A stretch of 64,000 nucleotides of DNA, taken from the NCBI GenBank assembly GCA_963666345.1, contig OY762721.1, positions 3,776,001 to 3,840,000 on the forward strand. Reading direction: 5' to 3'. The notes below the pieces were generated by a model. The model had not been told where the DNA came from. It ran no database searches and saw only the letters and a program-made list of their open reading frames with translations. Source of the DNA: Desulfatiglandales bacterium (GTDB taxonomy: Bacteria > Desulfobacterota > DSM-4660 > Desulfatiglandales > Desulfatiglandaceae). Positions 1,762 to 30,035 of the stretch are shown piece after piece. How positions within the stretch are numbered: position 1 is the stretch's first letter; each line of letters starts with the position of its first letter. A program made the translations under genes and the position numbers.

Positions 1762-2387
1762 ATTTAACAACCACCCCTAAAAGGGGTGGACTAAAAGGTG
1801 ACCCTAAAAGGGTAACATTTACATCCTTATACTAGGCAATTACATGCGCTTATCTTTTTCCAACTGCCATTTGACATACTTTCTGATCTTCTCCTCATCC
1901 AGTCCTATGGTACTGACACAGTATCCCTTCGCCCAAAAATGCCTTCCCCAGTACCGCCTTTTCAACTCCAGATGCCTATCAAAGATCTTTATGGCGCATT
2001 TGCCTTTCAAAAAACCTGTTACTTCCGAAACCGATAACTTCGGTGGTATTGATATCACAAGATGCACATGGTCTTTCTGGACATTCATTTCCAGAATTTC
2101 AAGCTTCTTCCATTCGCACAGCTGCTTTATAATTTCACAGACTGATTTTCTTACTGCACCTTTCAGAATCCTGAATCGATATTTCGGGCACCAAACTATG
2201 TGGTATTTGCAATCCCAGATCGCATGTGCTAATTTTCTAAAATCATTCATTGAATACCTCCTTTTATCTTCAGGGTCACCTACCCCGATATTATGGAGGT
2301 ATTCTTTTTTTGTCACCACCACGCTACCCGCTTAGCATAGCTGGGACCCACCAGTAAAACTGGTGGATTAAGGGGTTATTTAACAAC
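1762..2387 (-). mobile_element. IS200/IS605-family element (tnpA only)
   Basis: Y1 transposase with subterminal hairpins CCACCCCT-AAA-AGGGGTGG (~1771-1788) and CCACCAGT-AAA-ACTGGTGG (~2348-2366). Leader inverted repeat GAATACCTCC/GGAGGTATTC (~2252-2304) covers the RBS. Confidence 0.85.
1840..2250 (-). CDS. tnpA: IS200 HuH/Y1 transposase
   Basis: 'CKYHIVWCPKYR', HuH 'DHVHL', 'FWAKGYCVST', 'IRKYV..Q'. ATG at 2250 is preceded by GGAGG. Confidence 0.93.
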   Translation of the reverse strand: MNDFRKLAHAIWDCKYHIVWCPKYRFRILKGAVRKSVCEIIKQLCEWKKLEILEMNVQKDHVHLVISIPPKLSVSEVTGFLKGKCAIKIFDRHLELKRRYWGRHFWAKGYCVSTIGLDEEKIRKYVKWQLEKDKRM

Positions 2388-2443
2388 TTACTCCGGTACG
2401 CAACCACAGCACAAATAGACTAAATGACATTCAAGAGGGCCTA

Positions 2444-4021
2444 ATGCCACTTCAACTTTTTGACCTACTGAGCAAGGGTTACTTCCCGAAAGAATTACCG
2501 CCGCCATTCACAACAGAAACCTACGCTCAGGCTCTAGCTGGTCCACAGGCTACCCCGCCTCCTGGCAGTTTTTCTTCTCGCCCGTGGTTCTCTATGTCAT
2601 GTACCCATAATCTTGTTAGAACAGGAGGACTTCGCAGGAACCTCAGCATTCCGAACCCAAAGCATTACTTCCGTTTGGCTGAACACATAGTCGCGAATTG
2701 GGCCAATATGACAACGCTTACGAATGCAACGCCCTTTTCGTTCAGCAAACCTGTTGATATCCATCTTGGCAGATCTATATCTCCTGAACATCGTTTAGCC
2801 GAGAGAGCTGCCTCACGAGTCCATCTTAGATCAACGGGTCGTATTCTTTTAAAGGCAGATATAACAAGATTCTTCCCATCTGTTTACACTCATGCGATTC
2901 CATGGGCCATTATGGGAAAGACCGCGGCAAAAAATGCTCATGCGGCTGGAACGTTGAAAGGTTCTTGGGAAGATAGGGTGGACCTCTTGTCCCGGTCATT
3001 GAATAGTAATCAAACAGTAGGCATTCCTATTGGCCCTGACACATCACTACTCATCGCAGAGGTACTACTCGCACGAATTGATTTAGAACTCAGCCAGAAA
3101 TTTCCCAATCTCAAGTGTTTAAGATATATCGATGACTACGAGTTTGTCTTTACAACAAGATCAGAGGCAGAGGAAGTACTTGGATACTTACAATTTCTGC
3201 TTAATAACTTCGAATTTGCGATTAATCCTAATAAAACTTTTATCATTGAATTGCCTGGGCCTCTAGAGAGTATATGGACTACTAATCTAAGATATTTCAT
3301 CTTCCGCGATGCTGGAGTAACAGGGCAACAGAACGATTTAGTGGCATTTTTCGACACAGCCTTTGAATTGTTCAAAAGGTATCGGGAAGAAGGTCTCATG
3401 AAATATGCAGTTGCTTGCCTGAGGGGGTTAAATGTCCAAGAAGAGAACTGGGAACTTCTTGAAGGTCTCTTGATGCATTGCATATCGATTGAGCCTGCTT
3501 GCCTCCCACAAGTATGCGATCAGGTTGTTTACTACCTTTCTTTGGGTTACCCGGTGAAGACAGACCTTTGGTCTGTTTGTCTAAATAATATTGTAATAGA
3601 AAAGACTCCATTGGGGCAAGCTAGTGAAGTCGCGTGGGCTATGTGGCTCATGAAAATTCTTGATATAAATCTTCAGGATAAATGTTCACAGGCGGTAGGT
3701 GATAGCGAAGACTCTGTCGTTGGGCTAATGGCACTTGGTCTGGCTACAGCTGGATTAGCAAGCATGGCAAATCTGGCCGGGCTTCATCGTTACTCTCAGC
3801 ATAATTTTCTGTTTGAGTCCCAATGGCTTCTTTGCTACCAAGGCAATCTAATGACGTGCCTTGGTCCTGGAGGTGGTCCAGTTAATCTCCAAACCGACTC
3901 GGCCTTCTCATACATGGAGGCTCAGGGAGTTTCATTTTTTGATATCAACGTTCCTGTGCCACCAGCAATTCGGTACGCGGTTCCTCCCGCCTATGGTGGA
4001 GGTGGCGGCGGTGGTTATTAA
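2444..4021 (+). CDS. Abi/UG (DRT-like) reverse transcriptase with C-terminal helical region, 525 aa
   Basis: RT motifs 'RRNLSIPNP', 'ADITRFFPSVYTHAIPWA', 'GIPIGPDTS', catalytic 'RYIDDY', 'INPNKT'; N-terminal 'GYFPKELPPPFT'; no retron VTG motif. Confidence 0.88.
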   Translation: MPLQLFDLLSKGYFPKELPPPFTTETYAQALAGPQATPPPGSFSSRPWFSMSCTHNLVRTGGLRRNLSIPNPKHYFRLAEHIVANWANMTTLTNATPFSFSKPVDIHLGRSISPEHRLAERAASRVHLRSTGRILLKADITRFFPSVYTHAIPWAIMGKTAAKNAHAAGTLKGSWEDRVDLLSRSLNSNQTVGIPIGPDTSLLIAEVLLARIDLELSQKFPNLKCLRYIDDYEFVFTTRSEAEEVLGYLQFLLNNFEFAINPNKTFIIELPGPLESIWTTNLRYFIFRDAGVTGQQNDLVAFFDTAFELFKRYREEGLMKYAVACLRGLNVQEENWELLEGLLMHCISIEPACLPQVCDQVVYYLSLGYPVKTDLWSVCLNNIVIEKTPLGQASEVAWAMWLMKILDINLQDKCSQAVGDSEDSVVGLMALGLATAGLASMANLAGLHRYSQHNFLFESQWLLCYQGNLMTCLGPGGGPVNLQTDSAFSYMEAQGVSFFDINVPVPPAIRYAVPPAYGGGGGGGY

Positions 4022-4271: not shown

Positions 4272-6059
4272 ATGTACAGTAGCAATTCGGCAACTGCGCA
4301 GACTATCTATGGGCATATGGACGTAGCGGCATTCCTTCGTGCCTATCAGATGCGTACGAGCAGCGTTATGTGGCTTCTAGGCGCTGGCGCCTCCCGTTCC
4401 GGCGGCATCAAGACTGCCGGTGACATGATCTGGGACTTCAAACAGAACCTCTACCGCTCGCACAAGAAGCTCCCGCCCAATGCGATTACCGACCTGGGTG
4501 ACCCGGCCGTTCAGCGCAAGCTTCAGCGGTATTTCGATGAGCTTCCGGAATTTCCAGCAGGCGGAGCACCTGACGAGTACGCGCAGTACTTCGAGGCCAC
4601 TTATCCGCATGCCAATGACCGGCGGGCGTATCTCGACAAGCTCATCAGGCTCGGTAAGCCGTCCTACGGGCATTTATCGCTCGCCTTGTTGATGCGCGAA
4701 GGGTGTTGTCGCATAGTCTGGACGACCAATTTCGACCGAACAGTGGAGGATGCGGCCGCCAAGATCTACGGGACAACGAACGACCTCGTGGTGGCGGACC
4801 TTGGTGAGCCGAAAAAGGTCGCCGATGCGCTCAATGCCAAGCGCTTTCCGATCTATGGCAAACTGCACGGCGACTATCATTCCGTCGCCCTCAAAAACAC
4901 GGACGAAGAGCTCAGAGAGCAAGACGCCGAGATGTGCCGCGCGTTTTTTCAAGCGTGCAAGACGAATGGGCTGGCAGTGGTTGGCTACAGCGGTCGGGAT
5001 GCCTCCGTCATGGAAACCCTGAGGGAGGCGTTGGACGATGGGCGGGGATTCCCGAATGGGCTGTTCTGGTTTAAGCGGTCCGGTGAAGAGCCCTTCGAGG
5101 CAGTGACGGAGTTGATCACAGAGGCGCGTCGCCTGCGGGTGGACGCCCATCTTATCGACAACGAGACTTTTGACGAGCTTCTGTCTGACCTTGTTCGGTT
5201 TTTGCCTGAAACCTCTGGCAAGCTCGGGGATATTGAAGGGGCCAAGCCACCGCGCCTTGGTAGTGCACCGCTGAAGGCACCAGGTGCAACGACCCCCTCA
5301 ATCCGGACCAATGCGTTGCCGATCATCTCGCACCCTGTTATGTGTCAGCTGATCGACTGCGACATCGGGGGTTGGGCGGAGATACAGGGAGCAATCGAGA
5401 CGGCTGGCGTTGATATCGTTGCCAGGCGGATTAAGGACGGCGTTATCGCTTTCGGGCGAGATCCGGATATCCGGGCAGCCTTTAATGCATTCGGCATTAA
5501 AAGGTTCGAGACACGTTCCATTCCCGATAAGAACCTCTCCTACGAGAGCGAGGAACGCCGCCTCATCCGGGATGCGCTTGTGCGTGCCCTGAGCAGTCGG
5601 CCGGGCATCGAGATCATACGCCGTGGGTGGCATGTTCTCGCGCTTCCAAACATGCAAACCGTGAAGCCGGGCCACTTTCAGTTTAATACCATCAAGCCCG
5701 TTGATAGTCTCACCGGCACGGTAGGGAAAACAGGCATTCGCTGGACTGAGTGCTGCGAACTACGTCTTGACTACAAGCTTGACCGGTTATGGCTCCTTAT
5801 GGAACCGCGCATCCACCGCGATATTCCGGTAGAGGCCACCTCAGCGCAGATCGACGAGTCCAAGGAATTTGTGCGTTCGAGGTTGGCGGGTCGCTTTAAC
5901 CCAAAGGCCAACGCCATGCTGAGCGGGTGGGCTAGCCTTCTTCTCGGGACAGACCGAAACGTCCGATCCGTCACGCTACGTAGCTTCGGCATATCCGACG
6001 GCATTGATGCGACCTTCGAGGTGTCGTCGATCACAGGATTTAGCGGGGTGAGCCGATGA
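4272..6059 (+). CDS. SIR2-APAZ NADase effector (short pAgo partner)
   Basis: SIR2 motifs 'LLGAGAS', 'WTTNFD', 'KLHGD', 'VVGYSGRD'; long C-terminal region; stop overlaps the pAgo start (ATGA). The start may be ATG 4317. Confidence 0.9.
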   Translation: MYSSNSATAQTIYGHMDVAAFLRAYQMRTSSVMWLLGAGASRSGGIKTAGDMIWDFKQNLYRSHKKLPPNAITDLGDPAVQRKLQRYFDELPEFPAGGAPDEYAQYFEATYPHANDRRAYLDKLIRLGKPSYGHLSLALLMREGCCRIVWTTNFDRTVEDAAAKIYGTTNDLVVADLGEPKKVADALNAKRFPIYGKLHGDYHSVALKNTDEELREQDAEMCRAFFQACKTNGLAVVGYSGRDASVMETLREALDDGRGFPNGLFWFKRSGEEPFEAVTELITEARRLRVDAHLIDNETFDELLSDLVRFLPETSGKLGDIEGAKPPRLGSAPLKAPGATTPSIRTNALPIISHPVMCQLIDCDIGGWAEIQGAIETAGVDIVARRIKDGVIAFGRDPDIRAAFNAFGIKRFETRSIPDKNLSYESEERRLIRDALVRALSSRPGIEIIRRGWHVLALPNMQTVKPGHFQFNTIKPVDSLTGTVGKTGIRWTECCELRLDYKLDRLWLLMEPRIHRDIPVEATSAQIDESKEFVRSRLAGRFNPKANAMLSGWASLLLGTDRNVRSVTLRSFGISDGIDATFEVSSITGFSGVSR

Positions 6060-7486
6060 CAGCATCCCCTCAGCCATTTCAACTGCCCGGCTATTCTGTC
6101 CTGACGGAACAGGAGCTACGCTTTGGAGCGGCGGACCCAAAGGCCGTGGATGCGCATCCGCTGCGAGGGTTGCTTCGGTTTGGCCCGTATTCCCGCGATA
6201 AGCTTGCGGCGATCGCCGATCCAATCCGAGTCGCCATCATCGCGCCTGCCGGACAGCTTGAACGGGTCAACGGCCTCTTGCGGGAACTTCAGCAATACCA
6301 TCAGCCGCGTGAGCGACGCCAGTACCTGCCGGGCTTTCCGGGCTTCTCAAAGGTTTTTTACGTGAACATGGGGGCCGCAGGCCCGCACGCGAACGTTGAG
6401 CTGCCAGTGGACCTGACAGAGCAGATGAAGCGGGTCGAGAAGCCCCATCTCAAGCTGGCCGAGGCGCTTCAGCATGCGCTCCACGCCCTCCACCATCAGA
6501 GAGATGCCTTCGATGTCGTCTACATCCTACTGGATAAGGCGTGGGAGGCCGGCTTCTTCGGCGGGGAGGGGGATGACTTCAACCTTCATGACTATGTGAA
6601 GGCCATTGCCGCCTTCGAAGGCATCCCTACCCAGTTCCTTAATGAAGATCGTGCGTTGGTGTATCGCTGCCGTGCCAGTGTGATGTGGCGTTTGGGCATC
6701 GCCCTCTATACCAAGGCTGGCGGCGTGCCGTGGGTCTTGGCCAATATCGATCCGGGAACGGCGTATATTGGAATCGACTATGCCCTCCGACCAAATACGG
6801 ACGTGGATTCGCGGTTTGCGATCTGTTGCAGCCAGGTTTTCGACGCTGAAGGCTCGGGCCTGGAGTTTGTCGCCTACGAGGCCAGTGGTGTCCGGATGTT
6901 TGGGAAGAACCCCTTCCTCCACCGGGATCAGATGATGAAGGTGATGTCCCGCAGCCTGGCTGTGTATCAGCGCAAACACGCAGGCGCTGTGCCCTCACGC
7001 ATCGTGGTGCACAAGAACACTGAATTTAAGCCCTACGAGATCGACGGAGTTTTCGACGCCTTCCCGAATACGGAGAACATCGAACTCGTCCACGTACAGC
7101 AGAATAGCGGATGGCGCGGTGTTTACATCACTAAGCCTCAGCAGCCGAATGGCTATCCGTGTTTGCGGGGCAGCACGTTCCAACTTGGCCAGCATACCTC
7201 CTTGCTCTGGACGCAGGGTGACCTGCCGGTCGTGGCTGACGGGAGTTCCTACTTCAAGGAAGGCAAAGGGACGCCTGAGCCTCTTATACTGAACCGACAC
7301 GCCGGCCGTGGTGCGATGGACGACTTGTGCAAAGAGACTCTTGCGCTCACGAAAATGGACTGGAACAACGACAGCCCCTATGACCGCATGCCGGTCACGC
7401 TCAACTTCGCCGGAACGCTTGCCGCTGTGGTCAAGCAGATGCCCAAACTGGAGCCTCGCTCGTACCCAGTGCGCCTGTTTATGTAA
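6056..7486 (+). CDS. Short prokaryotic Argonaute (MID-PIWI)
   Basis: 476 aa; MID 'HDYVKA..GIPTQ..IALYTKAGGVPW'; PIWI 'YIGIDY', 'IVVHKN', 'LTKMDWNN', 'PVTL'; catalytic tetrad incomplete. Confidence 0.93.
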   Translation: MTASPQPFQLPGYSVLTEQELRFGAADPKAVDAHPLRGLLRFGPYSRDKLAAIADPIRVAIIAPAGQLERVNGLLRELQQYHQPRERRQYLPGFPGFSKVFYVNMGAAGPHANVELPVDLTEQMKRVEKPHLKLAEALQHALHALHHQRDAFDVVYILLDKAWEAGFFGGEGDDFNLHDYVKAIAAFEGIPTQFLNEDRALVYRCRASVMWRLGIALYTKAGGVPWVLANIDPGTAYIGIDYALRPNTDVDSRFAICCSQVFDAEGSGLEFVAYEASGVRMFGKNPFLHRDQMMKVMSRSLAVYQRKHAGAVPSRIVVHKNTEFKPYEIDGVFDAFPNTENIELVHVQQNSGWRGVYITKPQQPNGYPCLRGSTFQLGQHTSLLWTQGDLPVVADGSSYFKEGKGTPEPLILNRHAGRGAMDDLCKETLALTKMDWNNDSPYDRMPVTLNFAGTLAAVVKQMPKLEPRSYPVRLFM

Positions 7487-7580: not shown

Positions 7581-7908
7581 GGGGGACGGGCCACGATAAT
7601 ATTACGAAATAACTTAGAAAGAAGTCTGAAAAAGAGCAAAGATAGGGCCTATATTGCGATTTTTGATACCGAAAAGGGCATTATAGGTTCTGCGTGATGG
7701 CAAGAGCAAAAAGGCATTTATTGAAAAATTACTTCTGCCTGGAACCGCAATCGACAGAAAGGTAAGACAATCCGGAAATGGCTATGAGTTTGAGGAGCGG
7801 TGAGTCCCTGCATCGTCTGTTTTGGGACGAAAACCGGTGATACAGGCCTCAGAAGGTGCTTTTGGGATGATTATCATGTATAACCAATAAGTTATCATGG
7901 GCTACCCC
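7581..7908 (+). mobile_element. Internally deleted non-autonomous element, copy 1
   Basis: Imperfect terminal IR GGGGACGGGCCACGATAA / TTATCATGGGCTACCCC. Both ends resemble 9581-9684 (29-bp identity, 7855-7883 = 9632-9660). Short ORF remnant MARAKRH at 7697. Confidence 0.6.
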
Positions 7909-7985: not shown

Positions 7986-9210
7986 TAGTACCATGTAACA
8001 GTTAAGATTGCGTATTTATGTTTTTATGATATACTAGCGACAACCTTATAGAGGAGGTCGCTATGGCACCAAGATATCGAGTAACGCTGCGCAAACAAGA
8101 GCGCCAAGAGCTTGAAACGATGACGCGCAAGGGGAAAATCGAAGCGAGACGATTCAAAAATGCTCGTGCGTTGCTGCTCTGCGATGCTGGGCCGGAGGGC
8201 CCTGGCTGGAAAGTTGCTGATGTGGCGTCAGCCCTTGGGATGAGCAGACGATCGATCGAGAATCTAAAGAAACGGTTTGTGGAAAAGGGGCTGGAGGCCG
8301 CCCTTGCTCGTAAGAAGCGTGAAAGACCTCCCCGAGAGATCAAGTTCGATGGGGCGTTCGAAGCGAGATTAATCGCGTTGGCCTGTTCGAAAATCCCAGA
8401 TGGATACCGACGCTGGACGGTAAGGCTTTTGGCCGAAAAGGCGGTTGAGCTGAAGTTTGCAGAATCCGTATCGCATATGTCAATACAACGGGTGTTAAAA
8501 AAAACGAACTTCAGCCTCACCGAAGCAAATACTGGAAAATCCCACCGAAAGGCAGCGCCGCGTTCGTAGCGTGCATGGAGGATGTTCTTTGCCTCTATCA
8601 CCTGCCGTACGATCCGGACTACCCAGTGGTATGCATGGATGAGTCCTGCAAACAGATGGTGGGCCAAGTGCGTGAGCCGATTCCGTGTAAGCCGGGGCGC
8701 CCTTTGCGTATGGACGACGAGTATGTCAGAAAAGGTGTGGCGCAAATTTTTATGGAAGTAGAGCCTCTTGCAGGTAGAAGGCATGTGGCGATTGCCGAAC
8801 ATCGCAGGAGGAAGGATTGGGCTGTGCAGATCAAGGCAATGCTTGATGAACGATATCCCAATGCGATCAAGGTGCGTCTGGTTATGGACAATCTCAATAC
8901 CCACAATACCGCCTCACTGTACGAGATGTTTGAAGCCGATGAAGCTAGGCGTTTGGCGCAACGACTGGAGATCCATTATACGCCGAAACACGGCAGTTGG
9001 TTGAACATGGCCGAGATTGAACTCAGTGTTTTGAAAGGCCAATGTCTTAATGACCGGATCCCCGACATGGCGACCATGGAGCGCCAAGTGGTCGCATGGA
9101 AAAAATCCGAAACAACCACGCAAGGAAAATTTTTTGGCAATTTACAACTCCTGATGCGAGGATTAGACTGAAACAGCTCTATCCGCAATTATAAATGTTA
9201 CATAGTACTA
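7986..9210 (+). mobile_element. IS630-family element
   Basis: IRs TAGTACCATGTAACA (7986-8000) / TGTTACATAGTACTA (9196-9210); CTAG context at both ends (TA target). Confidence 0.92.
8063..9171 (+). CDS. IS630 transposase in two ORFs (HTH 8063-8569; DDE to 9171), probably joined by a -1 frameshift at the A8 run near 8497-8504
   Basis: 'RWTVRLLA', 'CMDES', 'VMDNLNTH', 'YTPKHGSWLNMAEIE'; slippery TTAAAAAAAAC. A further frameshift is likely near the 3' end. Confidence 0.88.
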
Positions 9211-9580: not shown

Positions 9581-9684
9581 GGGTCGGGCCGCGATGACAA
9601 TATGAAATAACAAAGAAAGAAGGCCGAAAGGGGTGCTTTTGGGATGATTATCATGTATAATCAGCAAGTTGACTTGGAGACCCC
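9581..9684 (+). mobile_element. MITE-like copy 2 (ends only) of the element at 7581-7908
   Basis: GGGTCGGGCCGCGATGACAATATGAAATAAC..AGAAAGAAG joined directly to GGTGCTTTTGGGATGATTATCATGTATAA..CTTGGAGACCCC. Confidence 0.6.
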
Positions 9685-11285: not shown

Positions 11286-11565
11286 GGTGGCATGCCATTG
11301 GTATCAAAAGATACATCAAGATAAAGGCCGATTCAAACCCTTACTTGCCGGAGTATGCAGGATATTTCTGGTACAGACGGAATAAGAAGGGCAGCAAACT
11401 GTTAGCGGCACTGTCTGCTCGTGAGTCTCGGGCCATGCAGGCCGTTTAGGAGGTTAACAGCCGGGCAACTCCCTAAGGGCTGCCTTTTGAGAGGCTTGAG
11501 CCGTATGATGGGAAACTATCACGTACGGTTCTTAGGCTTACTATTACCCATAAGTCTAGACGATT

Positions 11566-11877: not shown

Positions 11878-11958
11878 CCTTGACACCTCCCTATCGTAAT
11901 AGTAGACGTATATAATACGTCTACTATACAAATGTCAACTTTTAATGGGAGGCGTTCA

Positions 11959-13404
11959 ATGAACCCAAAAAATAGATCAAGTTGGGCGGCGGAAGAGTTT
12001 GCAGAGGTCAAGCTCGGAGATAAAAGACTCGATGCAAGGCTGATTAAGCTGTGTGATAGATTTTCGGATGCTCCAGAGAGCCCCATCAACCAAGCATGCG
12101 TGGATTGGGCAGAGACCAAAGCTGCTTATCGTTTTTTTCAAAACAACAAAGTTGAGGTTGGTAAGATGTTGGCGGCCCACCGATGTAAAACAGCTCAGCG
12201 TACTAAGGAACACAAAACGGTTCTTGCACTCCAAGATACCAGTTATTTTGTCTATACTGACCATCCGAAGACCGAAGGACTCGGGAAGATGTCTTTAAAG
12301 AAGGGTAAAAACGTGAAAAATATCTATTCCAACGGCCTGATAATGCATACATGTCTGGCTGTAACAACTAAAGGCCTCCCACTCGGACTGTTGGATCAAA
12401 AAATATTTTCACGGAAACTCCGGAAAAAGGATAACAAAAAAGCAAAACCTCACGCCAATCTCCCGATAGAGGAAAAGGAAAGCTATAGATGGCTTGAGGC
12501 ATTAGAAAACACTAAGGAATTAACAGGTTGTACCCGAATCGTCACAGTCTGCGATCGAGAAGCCGATCTATACGATTTCTTTATGCGTAGCCATCAAATC
12601 AATGCCCCTGTCCTCGTTCGAGCAAACGTAGATAGGATTATAAATCGTAAATCCCGTTATGCAGAAAAGAATGTCGAAAAACTTTGGGAGAATATGCGAA
12701 AACAGCCTGATTCAGGTTCTTACGTGGTAGAAATCGCGAAAAGGTCTAAGTCGAAGCATGCCAAAGAAAGGGAAGCACGCACCGCGATGGTCTCTGTACG
12801 TTTCGGCTCTTTTACCCTCAATCCTCCCCGCAATAGTATCAGGCACAGCACTGAGAAACTTCCAGACATTGAGATGCACGCAGTCTATGTTATAGAAACA
12901 AATCCGCCTGATAGCGAGGAAGCTATCGAGTGGATGCTCCTGACCAATCTTCCAGTCATGTCGTATGAAGATGCTTATGAAAAAGTTTTGTGGTACTGCT
13001 TACGCTGGCGAATTGAAATGTACTTCAAGGTCTTAAAGTCCGGTTTTAGGGTCGAATCATGTCGGCTAGGGCATGCCGATCGGCTGGCAAAATACCTCAC
13101 AGTTATGAGCATTGTAGCTTGGAGGATCTTCATGATTACCTTGATCGCTCGTACCGATCCGACAACACCCTGCTCAACTTTCCTTACCGATCAGGAGTGG
13201 AAAGCCCTTTTCCTGCATGCAAATATAAACAAACCTATACCGAAAAAGCCACCAACCATTGGTATTGTAGTCATCTGGATTGCAAAACTAGGAGGTCACC
13301 TAGCCCGAAAAAACGATGGGCCTCCTGGTACTATCACATTATGGAGAGGATGGAAGCGTCTTGCAGATCTGAGTGAAGGCTTGAAACTGGCGGATCAGCT
13401 ATGA
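11959..13404 (+). CDS. IS4-family transposase
   Basis: 'LGDKRLDARL', 'LQDTS', 'VCDREAD', YREK 'YCLRWRIEMYFKVLKSG', 'PPGTITLWRGW'. Confidence 0.95.
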   Translation: MNPKNRSSWAAEEFAEVKLGDKRLDARLIKLCDRFSDAPESPINQACVDWAETKAAYRFFQNNKVEVGKMLAAHRCKTAQRTKEHKTVLALQDTSYFVYTDHPKTEGLGKMSLKKGKNVKNIYSNGLIMHTCLAVTTKGLPLGLLDQKIFSRKLRKKDNKKAKPHANLPIEEKESYRWLEALENTKELTGCTRIVTVCDREADLYDFFMRSHQINAPVLVRANVDRIINRKSRYAEKNVEKLWENMRKQPDSGSYVVEIAKRSKSKHAKEREARTAMVSVRFGSFTLNPPRNSIRHSTEKLPDIEMHAVYVIETNPPDSEEAIEWMLLTNLPVMSYEDAYEKVLWYCLRWRIEMYFKVLKSGFRVESCRLGHADRLAKYLTVMSIVAWRIFMITLIARTDPTTPCSTFLTDQEWKALFLHANINKPIPKKPPTIGIVVIWIAKLGGHLARKNDGPPGTITLWRGWKRLADLSEGLKLADQL

Positions 13405-26853: not shown

Positions 26854-28836
26854 TCAGATCAGATGCTGGCTGAATATGTCCCTTGTCTTGTAGGGAAGAT
26901 CCGAAGGATCGGATACGATCTTCCTGTCCGTGGCATAGGCCGTAAGTTTTCCGAACCGGGATCTTTCATCACCGGTCAGATCCGTGCTGTTCCTGGTAAG
27001 CATGTAAAAGACCAGTATGCCGGTATCGGCGGCCTCCTTGATTGCCATCCCGGAATCATACAGGGCGTTTTCATAATTACTGTCCGAAGGCATTCCGTCC
27101 GCGAATATAAAGAGTATCCTGGTTTTCTTCGGTTCCATGAGCAGCCTTTCGGCTATGCTCCTTATGGCGGCCCCGTCCCTGTTCGCGTAATGAGAGTCAA
27201 GACCTGTGAGACAGGACACATCCTTTGCCTCATAAATGTCTGTTTCGTTTTTGGACTGGTACATGTAGAGCCTCTGGGTGAAGGAGCCCTTGAGCTCCAG
27301 GTCCTCAATGGCCGTGTAAATGGCGGCCGCTGCGATCTTTTCGATATCAAGCACCTTCATGTCTTTTTTGGGGTCCAGCAGGTCCGCCTGAAAAGGGACG
27401 ATATTGGCGGAGGTGGACCCTGAGGCATCGATCAGGTAATAGATCGCGTAATCTCTTCTGTTTCGGACGGACGCGTCATAATATCTCTGCTCCCTTGCGA
27501 ACTTGGGATCGATACTGGCATAGACCACCCCCACGGGATTGAAGGATTCAGGTATGCCCTGCATCCTTTTCACCTGGAGCCGGTTCAGCTTAAGCTCTTC
27601 AAACTGCTCGGTTATGCTGGATATCAAAGTGGGATAATACCTGCGGATCATGTGAACAAACCTGGGGTCTCCCTGCTCAAGCCGTTGATAATTGACCTTG
27701 AATGGAACGGACTGAAGCCCCCATTTGCCGTATCCGAACACGACCCCCCCCTCAGGCTCAGATTGCGAAAACCCGCCAGGTTCGCCTGCCTCCGTATAAT
27801 CGATGCACAGGTCGGAGGCGATCTTTTTTATCCCGGCCAGCACCTCATCTTCGATGGAAAGGAGGTGCTCCAGGGAATCCGGTTTTACCGGGCCCCGGTT
27901 GAAATCATGGGCCGCGCGCACGGAAGCGGCCGGCATGGTGTTATTTTCTTTGTCTGCCCATTGCGGAAACTGAAGCCTTAAAAGGGGATAAAAACGGCGC
28001 AGCATCCTTATGGAATCAACAATAGATCCGAGGGCAAGGCCTTTTACCTCTGAGTAGAGATGATTTGTCAATTCAAGGTAATTGCTTATTCCCTTTGCCT
28101 TCAGTTCCGGTACGGTCGGTTTGGCGAAAAAGTCCTGCTCTTTACCTGTCAGCTCATCAAGTGAGCCGTAGCTGCCGTTTATGGCGAGCCTTTTTGCCGG
28201 GTCCCGGGAGACAAGTTCGGCAAGGGTCTTCCCGCACATTATCTTCCTTTGAAGGGCGCAGATGAAGTCTTCCTGATCATCGCCCCTGTATTTCCCCTTA
28301 AGCCCGATCATGACCAGGTTCAGAAAGTCAAGACACAGGCCATAGTCCTTCCTGTGCATGAACCTGGCAATGAGGTTGGCCTCGACCCTGAAGTCCTCAA
28401 GGCAGCCTAAGATTCTCCGCGCAAGTTCGGCATTACCCAGTTCCTCGAAGATATCTTCAAGATTGAGCGGTAGGAAACTTCCTTCAAGTATATGGGCCGC
28501 CTCGTGAATCAGGAGCGCTTTGTATATGGTGATATTCCTGTTCCTGTTAGTTACGGCAGGCCCGTCAGCGGGGAAAAGATCAATTGAAGGGGAGAGCCTG
28601 ATCTCGAAAAGGTCCTTTCCCGCCCCCTCCCTCTGTTTTATTACAACGGTTTCGGCAAGCGAACTTCCCGGTCTTACAGGCACGTAATTGTTTAAAAGAG
28701 GAATGGTCACCCCGTGGAAATGGTCTGAAAAAAGGGGTGATAAGAGAAAATCGGTTAGAGAAACACCATCCGTGCAACCGCTTTCAAGGACGGCTCTGAT
28801 CTCCAGCAGGGTCTTCTTTTCAGCTTGATCAAGCAT
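26854..28836 (-). CDS. vWA-domain protein (NorD/CbbO/CobT-like)
   Basis: 'HEAAH', 'LEDFRVE'; MIDAS 'LIDASGST', 'RDGAAIR', 'FADGMPSD'. Confidence 0.8.
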   Translation of the reverse strand: MLDQAEKKTLLEIRAVLESGCTDGVSLTDFLLSPLFSDHFHGVTIPLLNNYVPVRPGSSLAETVVIKQREGAGKDLFEIRLSPSIDLFPADGPAVTNRNRNITIYKALLIHEAAHILEGSFLPLNLEDIFEELGNAELARRILGCLEDFRVEANLIARFMHRKDYGLCLDFLNLVMIGLKGKYRGDDQEDFICALQRKIMCGKTLAELVSRDPAKRLAINGSYGSLDELTGKEQDFFAKPTVPELKAKGISNYLELTNHLYSEVKGLALGSIVDSIRMLRRFYPLLRLQFPQWADKENNTMPAASVRAAHDFNRGPVKPDSLEHLLSIEDEVLAGIKKIASDLCIDYTEAGEPGGFSQSEPEGGVVFGYGKWGLQSVPFKVNYQRLEQGDPRFVHMIRRYYPTLISSITEQFEELKLNRLQVKRMQGIPESFNPVGVVYASIDPKFAREQRYYDASVRNRRDYAIYYLIDASGSTSANIVPFQADLLDPKKDMKVLDIEKIAAAAIYTAIEDLELKGSFTQRLYMYQSKNETDIYEAKDVSCLTGLDSHYANRDGAAIRSIAERLLMEPKKTRILFIFADGMPSDSNYENALYDSGMAIKEAADTGILVFYMLTRNSTDLTGDERSRFGKLTAYATDRKIVSDPSDLPYKTRDIFSQHLI

Positions 28837-28838
28837 GT

Positions 28839-30035
28839 CTAAAGAGTTGTTCCGTCTTCCGGCCTGGGCAGAAGCCCCACTTCGGTCGCAATGATCCTGA
28901 GAAATGTATCCTGATTGCTGTTGTTGTTGAGCTCTCTTTCCTTTAAGGCACCGTGAAGCACCCTGTTCAGGGTGTCATAGGTAACGCCCATCCTTGCCGC
29001 CTTTTCACCGTAACGGGGCAGGTAATCCCTGTACGCCCTGAACCCGTCGGTTACGACCCTCTGGTCGGGGTATACGATCGAAAGTGTCTCGCTTTTCTCC
29101 CTTTCCTGCAGCAGACGGTTTGCCCTTTCGCCAAGCGAGTCATAGGAGAAGACATTTGGGTTTACCAGCCCCCTGAGTGCGGTAAGAAAAATCAGAAAGT
29201 CATAGAAAAAATCCCCCTTGCCCTTGAGCTCGCCTGTAAGCCTGTTTGAGACGTCCCTGTCTTCGATGATCGATCTGTCAAAGTAACGGTATGTCTCCTG
29301 GAGCCGCGTCTGCTCGGAGCTGAGAGCCTTTCCGTCACTGGTCGACCAGCGTCCTTCCCTGTTTTCCGTGAAGATGTAGGCGCCGTTTGAACCATCGCGC
29401 AGTATGCCCCTTTCAACCAGGGGTATGCTGAAATGCTCGCCCATCCTCTCAAAGGCGATATAAGCGGAAAGGATCGAATCAAGGTCCCTGAAATTGAAGG
29501 GATTGACCCTGCTTTTGTGCGAGAACTCGAAGTTGTCCCGTCCCGTGTTGCTCTTGGGCGGATTGAAAGTCTCGGTGTATATGAAATTTTCTATGTCCCA
29601 GCCTTCGTTGTCCCGCATGTAACCAAGGGATCTTTCGTTTCCCAGATCGTCAAGAATGACAAAGTCGAGGTAGTCGTCAGACAGAAGCGTGGAGAGGTAT
29701 TTCTGTATCTCGCGGGGCATCTCGCTTGTCTCCTCGTTGATCAGGATGCCTCCCTGCTTGAGCGCCGTCTTGAACTGCGTGATTGAGTACTCGGTCCTTC
29801 CGTTTACCAGCATCGGCCTTCCGAGGTAGTCGTAGGTCTGTTCATGGAGCTGGCAGTTCCTTGAAAAGACCGCCTTTTTCATGATAGAGGCCACATACCT
29901 TATGGCGCTTGATTTTCCATGTCCCGGATCGCCTGAAAGGGCTATGTTGTTCCTTCTTGAGATGGCGTGGACAAGCCACCTTATCTCGTCTATTTCAGGG
30001 ATGTCCCCCTGGTTTGCGATGTATATTCTTTCCAT
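28839..30035 (-). CDS. Divergent MoxR/CbbQ-like AAA+ ATPase
   Basis: Walker A 'GDPGHGKS'; Walker B-like 'ILINEET'; 'TFNP'; 2 bp upstream of the vWA gene. Confidence 0.72.
   Translation of the reverse strand: MERIYIANQGDIPEIDEIRWLVHAISRRNNIALSGDPGHGKSSAIRYVASIMKKAVFSRNCQLHEQTYDYLGRPMLVNGRTEYSITQFKTALKQGGILINEETSEMPREIQKYLSTLLSDDYLDFVILDDLGNERSLGYMRDNEGWDIENFIYTETFNPPKSNTGRDNFEFSHKSRVNPFNFRDLDSILSAYIAFERMGEHFSIPLVERGILRDGSNGAYIFTENREGRWSTSDGKALSSEQTRLQETYRYFDRSIIEDRDVSNRLTGELKGKGDFFYDFLIFLTALRGLVNPNVFSYDSLGERANRLLQEREKSETLSIVYPDQRVVTDGFRAYRDYLPRYGEKAARMGVTYDTLNRVLHGALKERELNNNSNQDTFLRIIATEVGLLPRPEDGTTL

Follow-up and report, generated by a model that had tools for sequence, protein, structure and literature searches.

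A DRT6/UG12-type reverse transcriptase with a clade-wide glycine-run and tyrosine terminus, a possible site of protein priming

Introduction

The closest described system to the gene considered here is DRT6, the name given to UG12 after it was found to protect Escherichia coli against phages T5 and ZL-19 (PMC9226505). The DRT6 of Sphingopyxis is an oligomeric enzyme that makes DNA independently of any template, carries the product covalently attached, and acts by abortive infection; it is triggered by ORF55 of phage T5, and is toxic in sbcB-knockout cells (PMC12783706). The gene compared with it below occupies positions 2444..4021 of a 64,000-nucleotide stretch of DNA, referred to throughout as the window, from a Desulfatiglandales bacterium (assembly GCA_963666345.1, contig OY762721.1, positions 3,776,001 to 3,840,000 of the forward strand), and codes for a reverse transcriptase (RT), hereafter the RT protein, that ends in a run of glycines capped by a single tyrosine.

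DRT4, the UG15 enzyme of E. coli, is a hexamer that primes from Tyr125 (PMC12783706; 10.64898/2026.10.21.760695; 10.64898/2026.10.27.754916), a residue reported to be absolutely conserved in 174 DRT4 systems (PMC12783706). It makes purine-rich single-stranded DNA (ssDNA), and possesses a ribonuclease (RNase) activity switched on by a phage single-stranded DNA-binding protein (SSB) together with deoxynucleoside triphosphates (dNTP) or dGTP (10.64898/2026.10.21.760695; 10.64898/2026.10.27.754916). The catalytic pair of that RNase is His160/Asp192, and activating it is reported to require the flexible C-terminus of the enzyme (residues 508-540), to which the phage SSB gp44 binds (10.64898/2026.10.21.760695). 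The known primers of class 1 enzymes lie in flexible elements found at differing places (10.64898/2026.02.16.706125): a fingers loop in AbiK and Abi-P2, an inter-domain linker in AbiA, a palm loop in DRT4, and an alphaRep helix in UG10 (PMC12783706; 10.64898/2026.02.16.706125).

Gene and predicted product

The gene is an intact open reading frame (ORF) running from ATG to TAA, with 525 codons plus the stop, and an AGAGGG Shine-Dalgarno-like stretch ends 5 nt 5' of the ATG. Its GC content is 0.454, against 0.493 for the window. The gene and the parts of its product are located as follows.

2444..4021, + strand: DRT6/UG12-type class 1 UG/Abi RT gene, 525 aa (ORF; PADLOC Drt6; sequence and fold match to 9wy8_A)
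2444..3301, + strand: RT-like fingers and palm, residues ~1-286 (alignment mapping; Pfam RVT_1 at residues 116-269)
3314..3922, + strand: alphaRep domain, with helices over residues 291-493 (AlphaFold2 model with DSSP; Foldseek)
3929..3982, + strand: ordered, conserved C-terminal segment VSFFDINVPVPPAIRYAV, residues 496-513 (model confidence; column counts)
3983..4018, + strand: disordered tail PPAY-G7-Y, residues 514-525, with the candidate priming residue Tyr525 (model confidence <50; column counts)

The motifs GYFPKELPPPFT (residues 12-23), YTHAIPWA (148-155), GIPIGPDTS (193-201) and YIDD (228-231) are all where the initial annotation had placed them, and its description of an intact YIDD-containing RT with a helical C-terminal region agrees with the ORF and with the helices assigned by DSSP to residues 291-493 of the predicted structure. 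Its count of the linker does need amendment: the C-terminus reads ...RYAVPPAY-GGGGGGG-Y, with seven glycines rather than six. These are specified by mixed codons (GGT GGA GGT GGC GGC GGT GGT, then TAT TAA), and the run is therefore not a simple repeat or an artefact of slippage or frameshift. An identical tail is present in the nearest homologue (P0001, 91% identity) of the 799 found at E<=1e-3 when 8000 candidates were scored.

Assignment to the DRT6/UG12 family

The sole Pfam match of the RT protein was to the generic domain RVT_1 (37.2 bits; cut-off 29.6). A far more specific result came from the PADLOC models, among which the UG12-derived Drt6 model PDLC03748 matched residues 5-505 to positions 4-483 of its 511 with a score of 486.5 bits (2.7e-146), compared with 271.8 bits for the UG15-derived Drt4 model, 197.8 for UG30, 127.8 for AbiK and 95.4 for Abi-P2. 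Searches of solved structures gave a corresponding order: the best sequence match was 9wy8_A, the DRT6 of Sphingopyxis sp. (PHR10625.1) fused to maltose-binding protein (1.9e-64 for the single sequence; 1.8e-114 for a family profile built from a 97-sequence alignment), followed by DRT4/UG15 entries at 4.5e-36 and by AbiK and Abi-P2 at ~1e-14.

The same alignment was used to generate an AlphaFold2 model with a mean pLDDT (predicted local distance difference test) score of 92.8 and a predicted template modelling score of 0.90. Its top Foldseek match was again hexameric DRT6, the cryo-electron microscopy structure 9wy8_A (E 1.6e-32; template modelling (TM) score 0.87/0.92; root-mean-square deviation 2.5 Å; 30% identity), with TM scores of 0.79/0.83 for DRT4 (9vdo), 0.66-0.69 for AbiK, 0.48 for Abi-P2 and ~0.33 for DRT9, and the model superposed over its full length on DRT6, DRT4 and AbiK. 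Where other RTs have a thumb, the model has a predicted C-terminal alphaRep domain (helices 291-493; pLDDT 86-98), a feature of class 1 UG/Abi enzymes. Order is predicted to extend beyond it as far as residue ~510, with pLDDT values of 98 for residues 491-500 and 94 for 501-510, and in the monomer model residues 496-513 are packed against the core; pLDDT falls below 50 nowhere but in residues 514-525. Full-length matches to the PADLOC Drt6 model, to the solved DRT6 and in Foldseek thus place the RT protein in the DRT6/UG12 family of class 1 UG/Abi RTs.

That it is instead a DRT4 (UG15) proper is very unlikely. Such a reading draws on the fold match to DRT4 at TM ~0.8, and on two older PADLOC models labelled Drt4 that scored nearly as high as Drt6 (PDLC02177, 460.5 bits; PDLC02179, 438 bits). 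Those two models, however, score UG12-type proteins highly in 11/11 chosen relatives, and exceed the Drt6 model for P0242 and P0266, and so do not separate DRT4 from DRT6; the Drt6 model was the best match in 9/11 of these relatives and the second in the other two. Moreover, the score with the NCBIfam DRT4 equivalog NF041749 was 250.9 bits where the cut-off is 450, the UG15-derived PADLOC and DRT4 structure matches fall well behind their DRT6 counterparts as given above, and the DRT4 primer Tyr125 is aligned to a histidine. It was observed in passing that, owing to PDLC02177 and PDLC02179, automated annotation could label DRT6-type genes as DRT4.

It is extremely unlikely that the gene encodes an RT of the retron or group II intron kind, or that it is the decayed and non-functional relic of an RT in a region rich in insertion sequences (ISs). 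The locus does have transposase genes on both sides, and a group II intron RNA domain lies ~7.5 kb downstream; against this, the NCBIfam models for group II maturases and for retron St85 RTs reached only 38.9 and 29.9 bits against cut-offs of 300 and 235 respectively, no Rfam match lay in or beside the gene, and the intact ORF has a length normal for the family, with all catalytic residues kept and a confidently modelled product.

The proposal in the initial annotation of a DRT4/AbiA-like class 1 enzyme consequently stands as regards class 1 and proximity to DRT4, while the best match is to DRT6/UG12 and AbiA was not among the best 25 of 67 PADLOC matches. Likewise, the PADLOC comparison that it had recommended did return a defence RT, the family being Drt6, and clustering with retron or group II RTs, one of its stated grounds for abandoning the idea, did not occur. 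The epithet 'uncharacterised' has to be withdrawn: DRT6/UG12 is known for phage defence (PMC9226505) and protein-linked DNA (PMC12783706), has a solved structure (9wy8), and the gene is a new member of this validated family rather than an uncharacterised kind.

Within the family the resemblance to the validated DRT6 extends to the RT-like plus alphaRep architecture, the catalytic Asp residues and the single-gene layout, in addition to the sequence, profile and fold matches. The differences are that identity is only ~30%, that the RT protein falls in a separate, well-supported clade of 109 of the 248 sequences sampled, and that the validated DRT6, at ~564 aa by offset calculation, carries ~65 extra C-terminal residues including an Asp/Glu run, where the RT protein has a 12-residue neutral Gly-run ending in Tyr. 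In searches against 9wy8, by profile as well as pairwise, the alignment ends at chain residue ~896-899, and P0242, a relative with an acidic tail, could be weakly aligned to the Asp/Glu run at 941-953 of the 962-residue chain, which indicates that the validated DRT6 is of the acidic-tail type, its last nine residues aside.

AbiK and Abi-P2 (Lactococcus and P2 prophage; PDB 7r06, 7r08) are likewise class 1, protein-primed and template-independent, with an alphaRep domain. They differ in giving a weaker and partial sequence match (1e-14) with lower TM scores (0.66 for AbiK, 0.48 for Abi-P2), and in priming from Tyr44 and Tyr61, in the N-terminal fingers loop (PMC12783706).

Active-site residues and the equivalent of the DRT4 primer

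Pairwise residue alignment with DRT4 (PDB 9vdo, 9ltm, 21ou, 9l9s) gave the following correspondences.

Catalytic Asp triad: DRT4 D149, D240, D241; RT protein D139, D230, D231
RNase pair: DRT4 H160, D192; RT protein H150, D180 (putative)
DNA contacts: DRT4 R75, K336, Y337; RT protein R65, K320, Y321
YxDD tyrosine: DRT4 Y238; RT protein Y228
Primer: DRT4 Y125; RT protein H116

Column counts from an alignment of 251 relatives showed D139, Y148, H150, D180 and D230 to be invariant (251/251), with D231 present in 242/251. The motif A Asp and motif C Y/FxDD of the class 1 RT palm are thus represented by D139 and by Y228-I-D230-D231, and the His/Asp pair that forms the DRT4 RNase site has its putative equivalent in H150/D180 of every relative. 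The triad, the DNA contacts and the RNase pair are identical in DRT4 and the RT protein, which further share a flexible extreme C-terminus. The contrasts are equally clear: the RT protein lies below the NCBIfam DRT4 cut-off, its C-terminal element is a Gly-run capped by Tyr where that of DRT4 has 33 residues and reportedly binds phage SSB, and the hallmark tyrosine of DRT4 priming is His116. In the 251 relatives this last column holds His in 103, Tyr in 26, Phe in 16, Thr in 15, Ser in 14, Val in 12 and other residues in 65; within the 109-member clade the whole DRT4-primer loop is without a conserved hydroxyl residue, position 116 being mostly His and position 113 varying between S, T, A, V and M. 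At the level of aligned residues, therefore, the RT protein retains the polymerase site and also the putative RNase site, but not the DRT4 primer.

Conservation of the C-terminal tail

Tails were compared in 114 C-terminally complete sequences from the 120 closest homologues listed among the 799 matches, the remaining 6 having been left out for want of a VSFFD-like landmark within their last 60 residues. A tyrosine was present within the last four residues in 106/114, as the terminal residue in 81 and at -2 to -4 in 25, the latter mostly in the form Gly-run-[D/E]-Y-P-[M/I/E]; the conservation of the terminal Tyr among homologues, on which the initial annotation had made its proposal depend, was thereby confirmed. 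The 8/114 exceptions carry, directly after the Gly run, either Ser/Thr or Asn-Tyr plus an extension, and in no case do the last four residues include Phe or Trp; those with Ser/Thr end GGGGGGSP, GGGGGGSPPD, GGGGGGGSM, GGGGGST, GGGGGSPD, GGGSGDD and GGAGWTTTSV. In compositional terms the last 14 residues of the close homologues contain 39.2% Gly and 9.2% Tyr, as against 5.5% Gly, 2.8% Tyr and 5.0% Phe elsewhere.

A FastTree phylogeny was constructed from the core columns only, with the tail removed, of 248 sequences (the 251 relatives minus 3 with incomplete ends). It placed the RT protein inside the clade of 109 with a support of 99, and a strict Gly-run plus Tyr tail was found in 82/109 members of this clade as opposed to 9/139 sequences outside it, the latter scattered across the tree. 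Column 525 in the clade consists of Tyr in 102, Ser/Thr in 4, Trp in 1 and Phe in none, whereas Phe replaces Tyr at 6/8 of the other Tyr-majority columns of the clade, for example 47 times at Y228, and column 525 is the only Tyr-majority column at which Ser/Thr occurs repeatedly. Of the other near-end tyrosines, Tyr511 is conserved in 16/109 and Tyr517 in 23/109. Upstream of the tail, F498 is invariant in the clade and R510 is present in 92/109, and the distance from F498 to the terminal Tyr ranges from 20 to 31 residues with a median of 26.

Relatives occur in many phyla, the close clade including metagenome-assembled genomes (MAGs) of delta-proteobacteria, Planctomycetota and Verrucomicrobiota, and the Gly-Tyr tail type is constant over 40-91% identity and several phyla. 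The clade as a whole is genuinely marked by this conserved ending of a Gly-run plus Tyr.

The terminal tyrosine as a candidate primer

Tyr525, held on a disordered Gly7 tether, is the leading candidate for the priming residue of the RT protein, a plausible one that we put forward tentatively. It is a natural candidate because Ser/Thr but not Phe is tolerated in its place, because the tether is flexible and free of side chains, and because the family primes from a protein hydroxyl; the replacement of the DRT4 primer by His116 is a further point in its favour. Extended to its relatives, the proposal is that a large DRT6-type clade may prime DNA from the hydroxyl of the last residue, or of a Ser/Tyr followed by Pro-x, by way of a disordered poly-Gly tether, a generalisation that we would likewise place at somewhat short of an even chance.

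A defence RT with a primer in its C-terminal tail has one precedent among the systems found, DRT9/UG28 of Salmonella enterica (SenDRT9), which is reported to prime, in all probability, from two conserved tyrosines of the tail, Y496 and Y498 (PMC12483538). DRT9 is otherwise unlike the RT protein: it is a class 2 enzyme that needs a non-coding RNA (ncRNA) template and makes poly-dA, its fold is distant (TM ~0.33), and its tail is not Gly-rich.

Several observations count against a priming role. The primer of DRT4 is a Tyr in an internal loop, and the flexible C-terminus of that enzyme is reported to serve as a sensor of phage SSB (10.64898/2026.10.21.760695). The validated DRT6 makes covalently attached DNA (PMC12783706) despite a tail that is acidic rather than Gly-Tyr. 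Outside the clade a Tyr in the last four residues is found in only ~59/139 representatives, and over all 248 sequences the column aligned to Tyr525 is occupied in 27 by Phe, which is unable to prime. Nor are tail Tyr and DRT4-equivalent loop Tyr complementary in their distribution: of the 248 sequences, 145 carry a Tyr in the tail alone and 14 in the loop alone, 25 carry one in each place and 64 in neither. AlphaFold2 docks the tail nowhere, its pLDDT remaining below 50. Finally, the DRT6 structure paper (10.1016/j.bbrc.2025.152955) may name a primer for DRT6. Neither a DRT6 priming residue nor a Gly-Tyr tail is named in the passages that mention DRT6/UG12 in PMC12783706, PMC9226505, PMC13213688, PMC13314766, 10.64898/2026.04.29.721553 and 10.64898/2026.10.21.760695.

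The main competing explanation concerns the role of the tail alone and leaves the enzyme a DRT6-type polymerase: the tail could be a regulatory or trigger-sensing element comparable to the C-terminal domain of DRT4, or an autoinhibitory plug of the DNA channel, the primer then being an internal Ser, Thr or Tyr. It is about as likely as the priming role, somewhat short of an even chance, and is not strictly exclusive of a priming tail. The position of the tail is equivalent to that of DRT4 residues 508-540, which are reported to bind gp44 and to be required for defence as well as for RNase activation (10.64898/2026.10.21.760695), and deletion of 38 C-terminal residues from UG15 abolished immunity (PMC9226505). 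The hypervariability of the tail across the wider family would suit a role in interaction or sensing, the covalent DNA of the acidic-tailed DRT6 tells in the same direction, and the 64/248 relatives with Tyr in neither tail nor loop imply that the family must have other primer positions. On the other hand, poly-Gly offers no side chains for recognition, the one specific element being a single Tyr, sometimes followed by Pro-x; the exchange of that Tyr in the clade for Ser/Thr and never for Phe points to a hydroxyl rather than to an aromatic contact; the persistence of one tail type over such a range of identities and phyla is unlike an arms-race surface; and the DRT4-primer loop of the clade offers no conserved hydroxyl with which to prime instead.

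Two further explanations of the tail were dismissed. A ubiquitin-like conjugation through C-terminal Gly, with the Tyr as a removable cap, was set aside on finding no conserved E1/E2 or protease partner among the neighbouring genes (largest cluster 5/57 loci), and mimicry by the RT protein of the host's SSB tail was rejected, the SSB encoded in the same genome (L003 1492-1911) ending DDDIPF, unlike G7-Y.

Diversity of tails in the wider family

In the wider family the tails are of several types, among them acidic tails ending DIPF, DDLPF, KLPF, ELPF or LPF, tails of the form 'TGVAPSxGxAPLFSL', tails of the form 'DDDFDLEYLLGDVSG', and Gly-Tyr. Recurrent 'DDDFDLEYLLGDVSG' and 'TGVAPSxGxAPLFSL' tails were noted at loci L020, L022, L034, L036, L037, L042, L044, L046 and L049 and in P0155, P0183 and P0187, those ending '...DDDFDLEYLLGDVSG' chiefly in records from betaproteobacteria. 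Among species-representative genomes, the closest relative in the collection (L004 4001-5605; 65% identity; a delta-proteobacterial MAG) has no Gly-Tyr tail and ends ...NVCHQLAFSP; its match stops at residue 501 of the RT protein, and either true replacement of the tail or a frameshift is possible. The extreme C-terminus is, on this evidence, a variable module of the UG12 family.

The acidic tails ending DIPF, DDLPF, KLPF or ELPF, noted in relatives P0142, P0242, P0246, P0253 and P0252 and at locus L080, have what we take to be a resemblance to the C-terminal tip of bacterial SSB. Mimicry of SSB tails by acidic-tail UG12 relatives is offered as a lead, since SbcB and phage SSBs govern the activity of DRT4 and DRT6 in the passages of the literature concerned with them; a search of the literature for mimicry of this kind in defence RTs yielded no paper.

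Proposed mechanism

By analogy with its solved and assayed relatives DRT6 and DRT4, the RT protein is very probably a DRT6/UG12-type single-gene abortive-infection RT acting as a protein-primed, template-independent ssDNA polymerase. It would assemble as a hexamer, a dimer of trimers, and would continuously synthesise short non-templated ssDNA from a hydroxyl side chain of its own, to which the product would become covalently attached and there be kept short by a host 3'-5' exonuclease. On infection, a phage ssDNA-binding protein and raised dNTP would stabilise or displace this DNA, and toxicity would be switched on by the build-up of ssDNA, probably also by way of the putative His150/Asp180 RNase site.

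As far as sequence comparison and modelling can establish them, the features directly evident are the fold, the triad of catalytic Asp residues, the pair of His and Asp, several residues of the DNA contacts and the layout as a single gene. DNA synthesis, priming, RNase activity and defence are properties that the RT protein would be expected to share with the relatives named. Two points weigh against too close an equation with them: the RT protein is only ~30% identical to the validated Sphingopyxis DRT6, and the validated enzyme has a long acidic C-terminal tail instead of Gly-Tyr.

Genomic context

The gene is present in a single copy in a one-contig genome of 4.16 Mb, and no full-length RT match was detected in the 40 genomes of relatives that were searched, which yielded one weak partial RT match (E 3.9e-4). 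It is located in an IS-rich island with the following neighbours.

2-940 and 937-1383: IS1182-like transposase split in two ORFs, DUF772 plus DDE_Tnp_1_6
1840-2322, - strand: IS200-type Y1 TnpA gene, divergent from the RT gene (Pfam Y1_Tnp 2.7e-40)
2323..2443, no strand: upstream spacer of 121 bp between the RT gene and the divergent IS200 tnpA, common to both (hairpin 2348-2366; weak promoter-like site 2310-2338)
4272-6059, + strand: SIR2-APAZ gene, 595 aa (PADLOC Aga_SIR2-PNTD1-PNTD2 3.6e-172)
6056-7486, + strand: short prokaryotic Argonaute (pAgo) gene, 476 aa (PADLOC pAgo_I 1.7e-186)
8063-8569 and 8575-9171: IS630-like transposase split in two ORFs, helix-turn-helix plus DDE_3

The absence of any conserved neighbour, the largest cluster of neighbouring genes being shared by only 5/57 related loci, fits a stand-alone system. 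The earlier description of a single-gene UG/Abi defence-type RT is upheld to the extent that no conserved partner gene was found in the 57 loci; that the gene is 'alone in its own cassette' holds in the same sense, but not literally, the SIR2-APAZ/short pAgo pair beginning 250 bp downstream on the same strand and the divergent IS200 gene lying 121 bp away.

The SIR2-APAZ and short pAgo genes overlap by 4 bp and constitute a SPARSA-type defence pair directly downstream of the RT gene. The GC content of the pair (0.581) is clearly higher than that of the RT gene (0.454), and the two were therefore probably acquired separately. Direct repeats of 57 nt (7844-7900 and 9621-9677; 81% identity) enclose the IS630-like element beyond them.

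On the upstream side, a hairpin with an 8-bp stem at 2348-2366, ~80 bp before the RT start, stands between the RT gene and the divergent tnpA. As a guess, it is part of the IS end, in which case the native promoter of the RT gene may have been displaced; promoter-like and terminator-like matches near the gene were at background level. An upstream ncRNA for the RT was considered and rejected: the described Rfam families gave no match in or near the gene, and the 121 nt upstream folded no better than shuffled sequence (z -1.6). Taken with the neighbour counts from the 57 loci, these results accord with the class 1 UG/Abi pattern of neither ncRNA nor obligatory partner gene.

Two other features of the window may be recorded. 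After the Rfam group II intron domain RF00029 (50 bits) at 11496-11541, possibly the fragment of an intron, comes a gene for a Tn5/IS4-like transposase (11932-13404) and not one for an intron maturase. At 26857-30035 on the - strand, an AAA_5 ATPase gene (398 aa) adjoins a 660-aa ORF with no Pfam or PADLOC match.

Implications

Taken by itself, the gene is an ordinary addition to a validated and structurally solved defence family. What it adds is a sharp prediction concerning the priming residue of DRT6-type enzymes, a matter left open in the relevant passages of the literature. If Tyr525 is indeed the primer, one more position would join the strikingly variable priming sites of class 1 polymerases, and among class 1 UG/Abi polymerases this would be the first to be primed from the extreme C-terminus. 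Nascent ssDNA would then be carried on a free, swinging tail and not on the body of the enzyme, the Gly-linker plus Tyr would amount to a minimal, portable priming tag, and the other tail types, such as the acidic SSB-tip-like ones, would be alternative functional modules at the same position. If the tyrosine is not the primer, the diversity of UG12 tails would still mark the C-terminus as a variable module of the family, for which the DRT4 work, in the passages cited, suggests a function in phage sensing.

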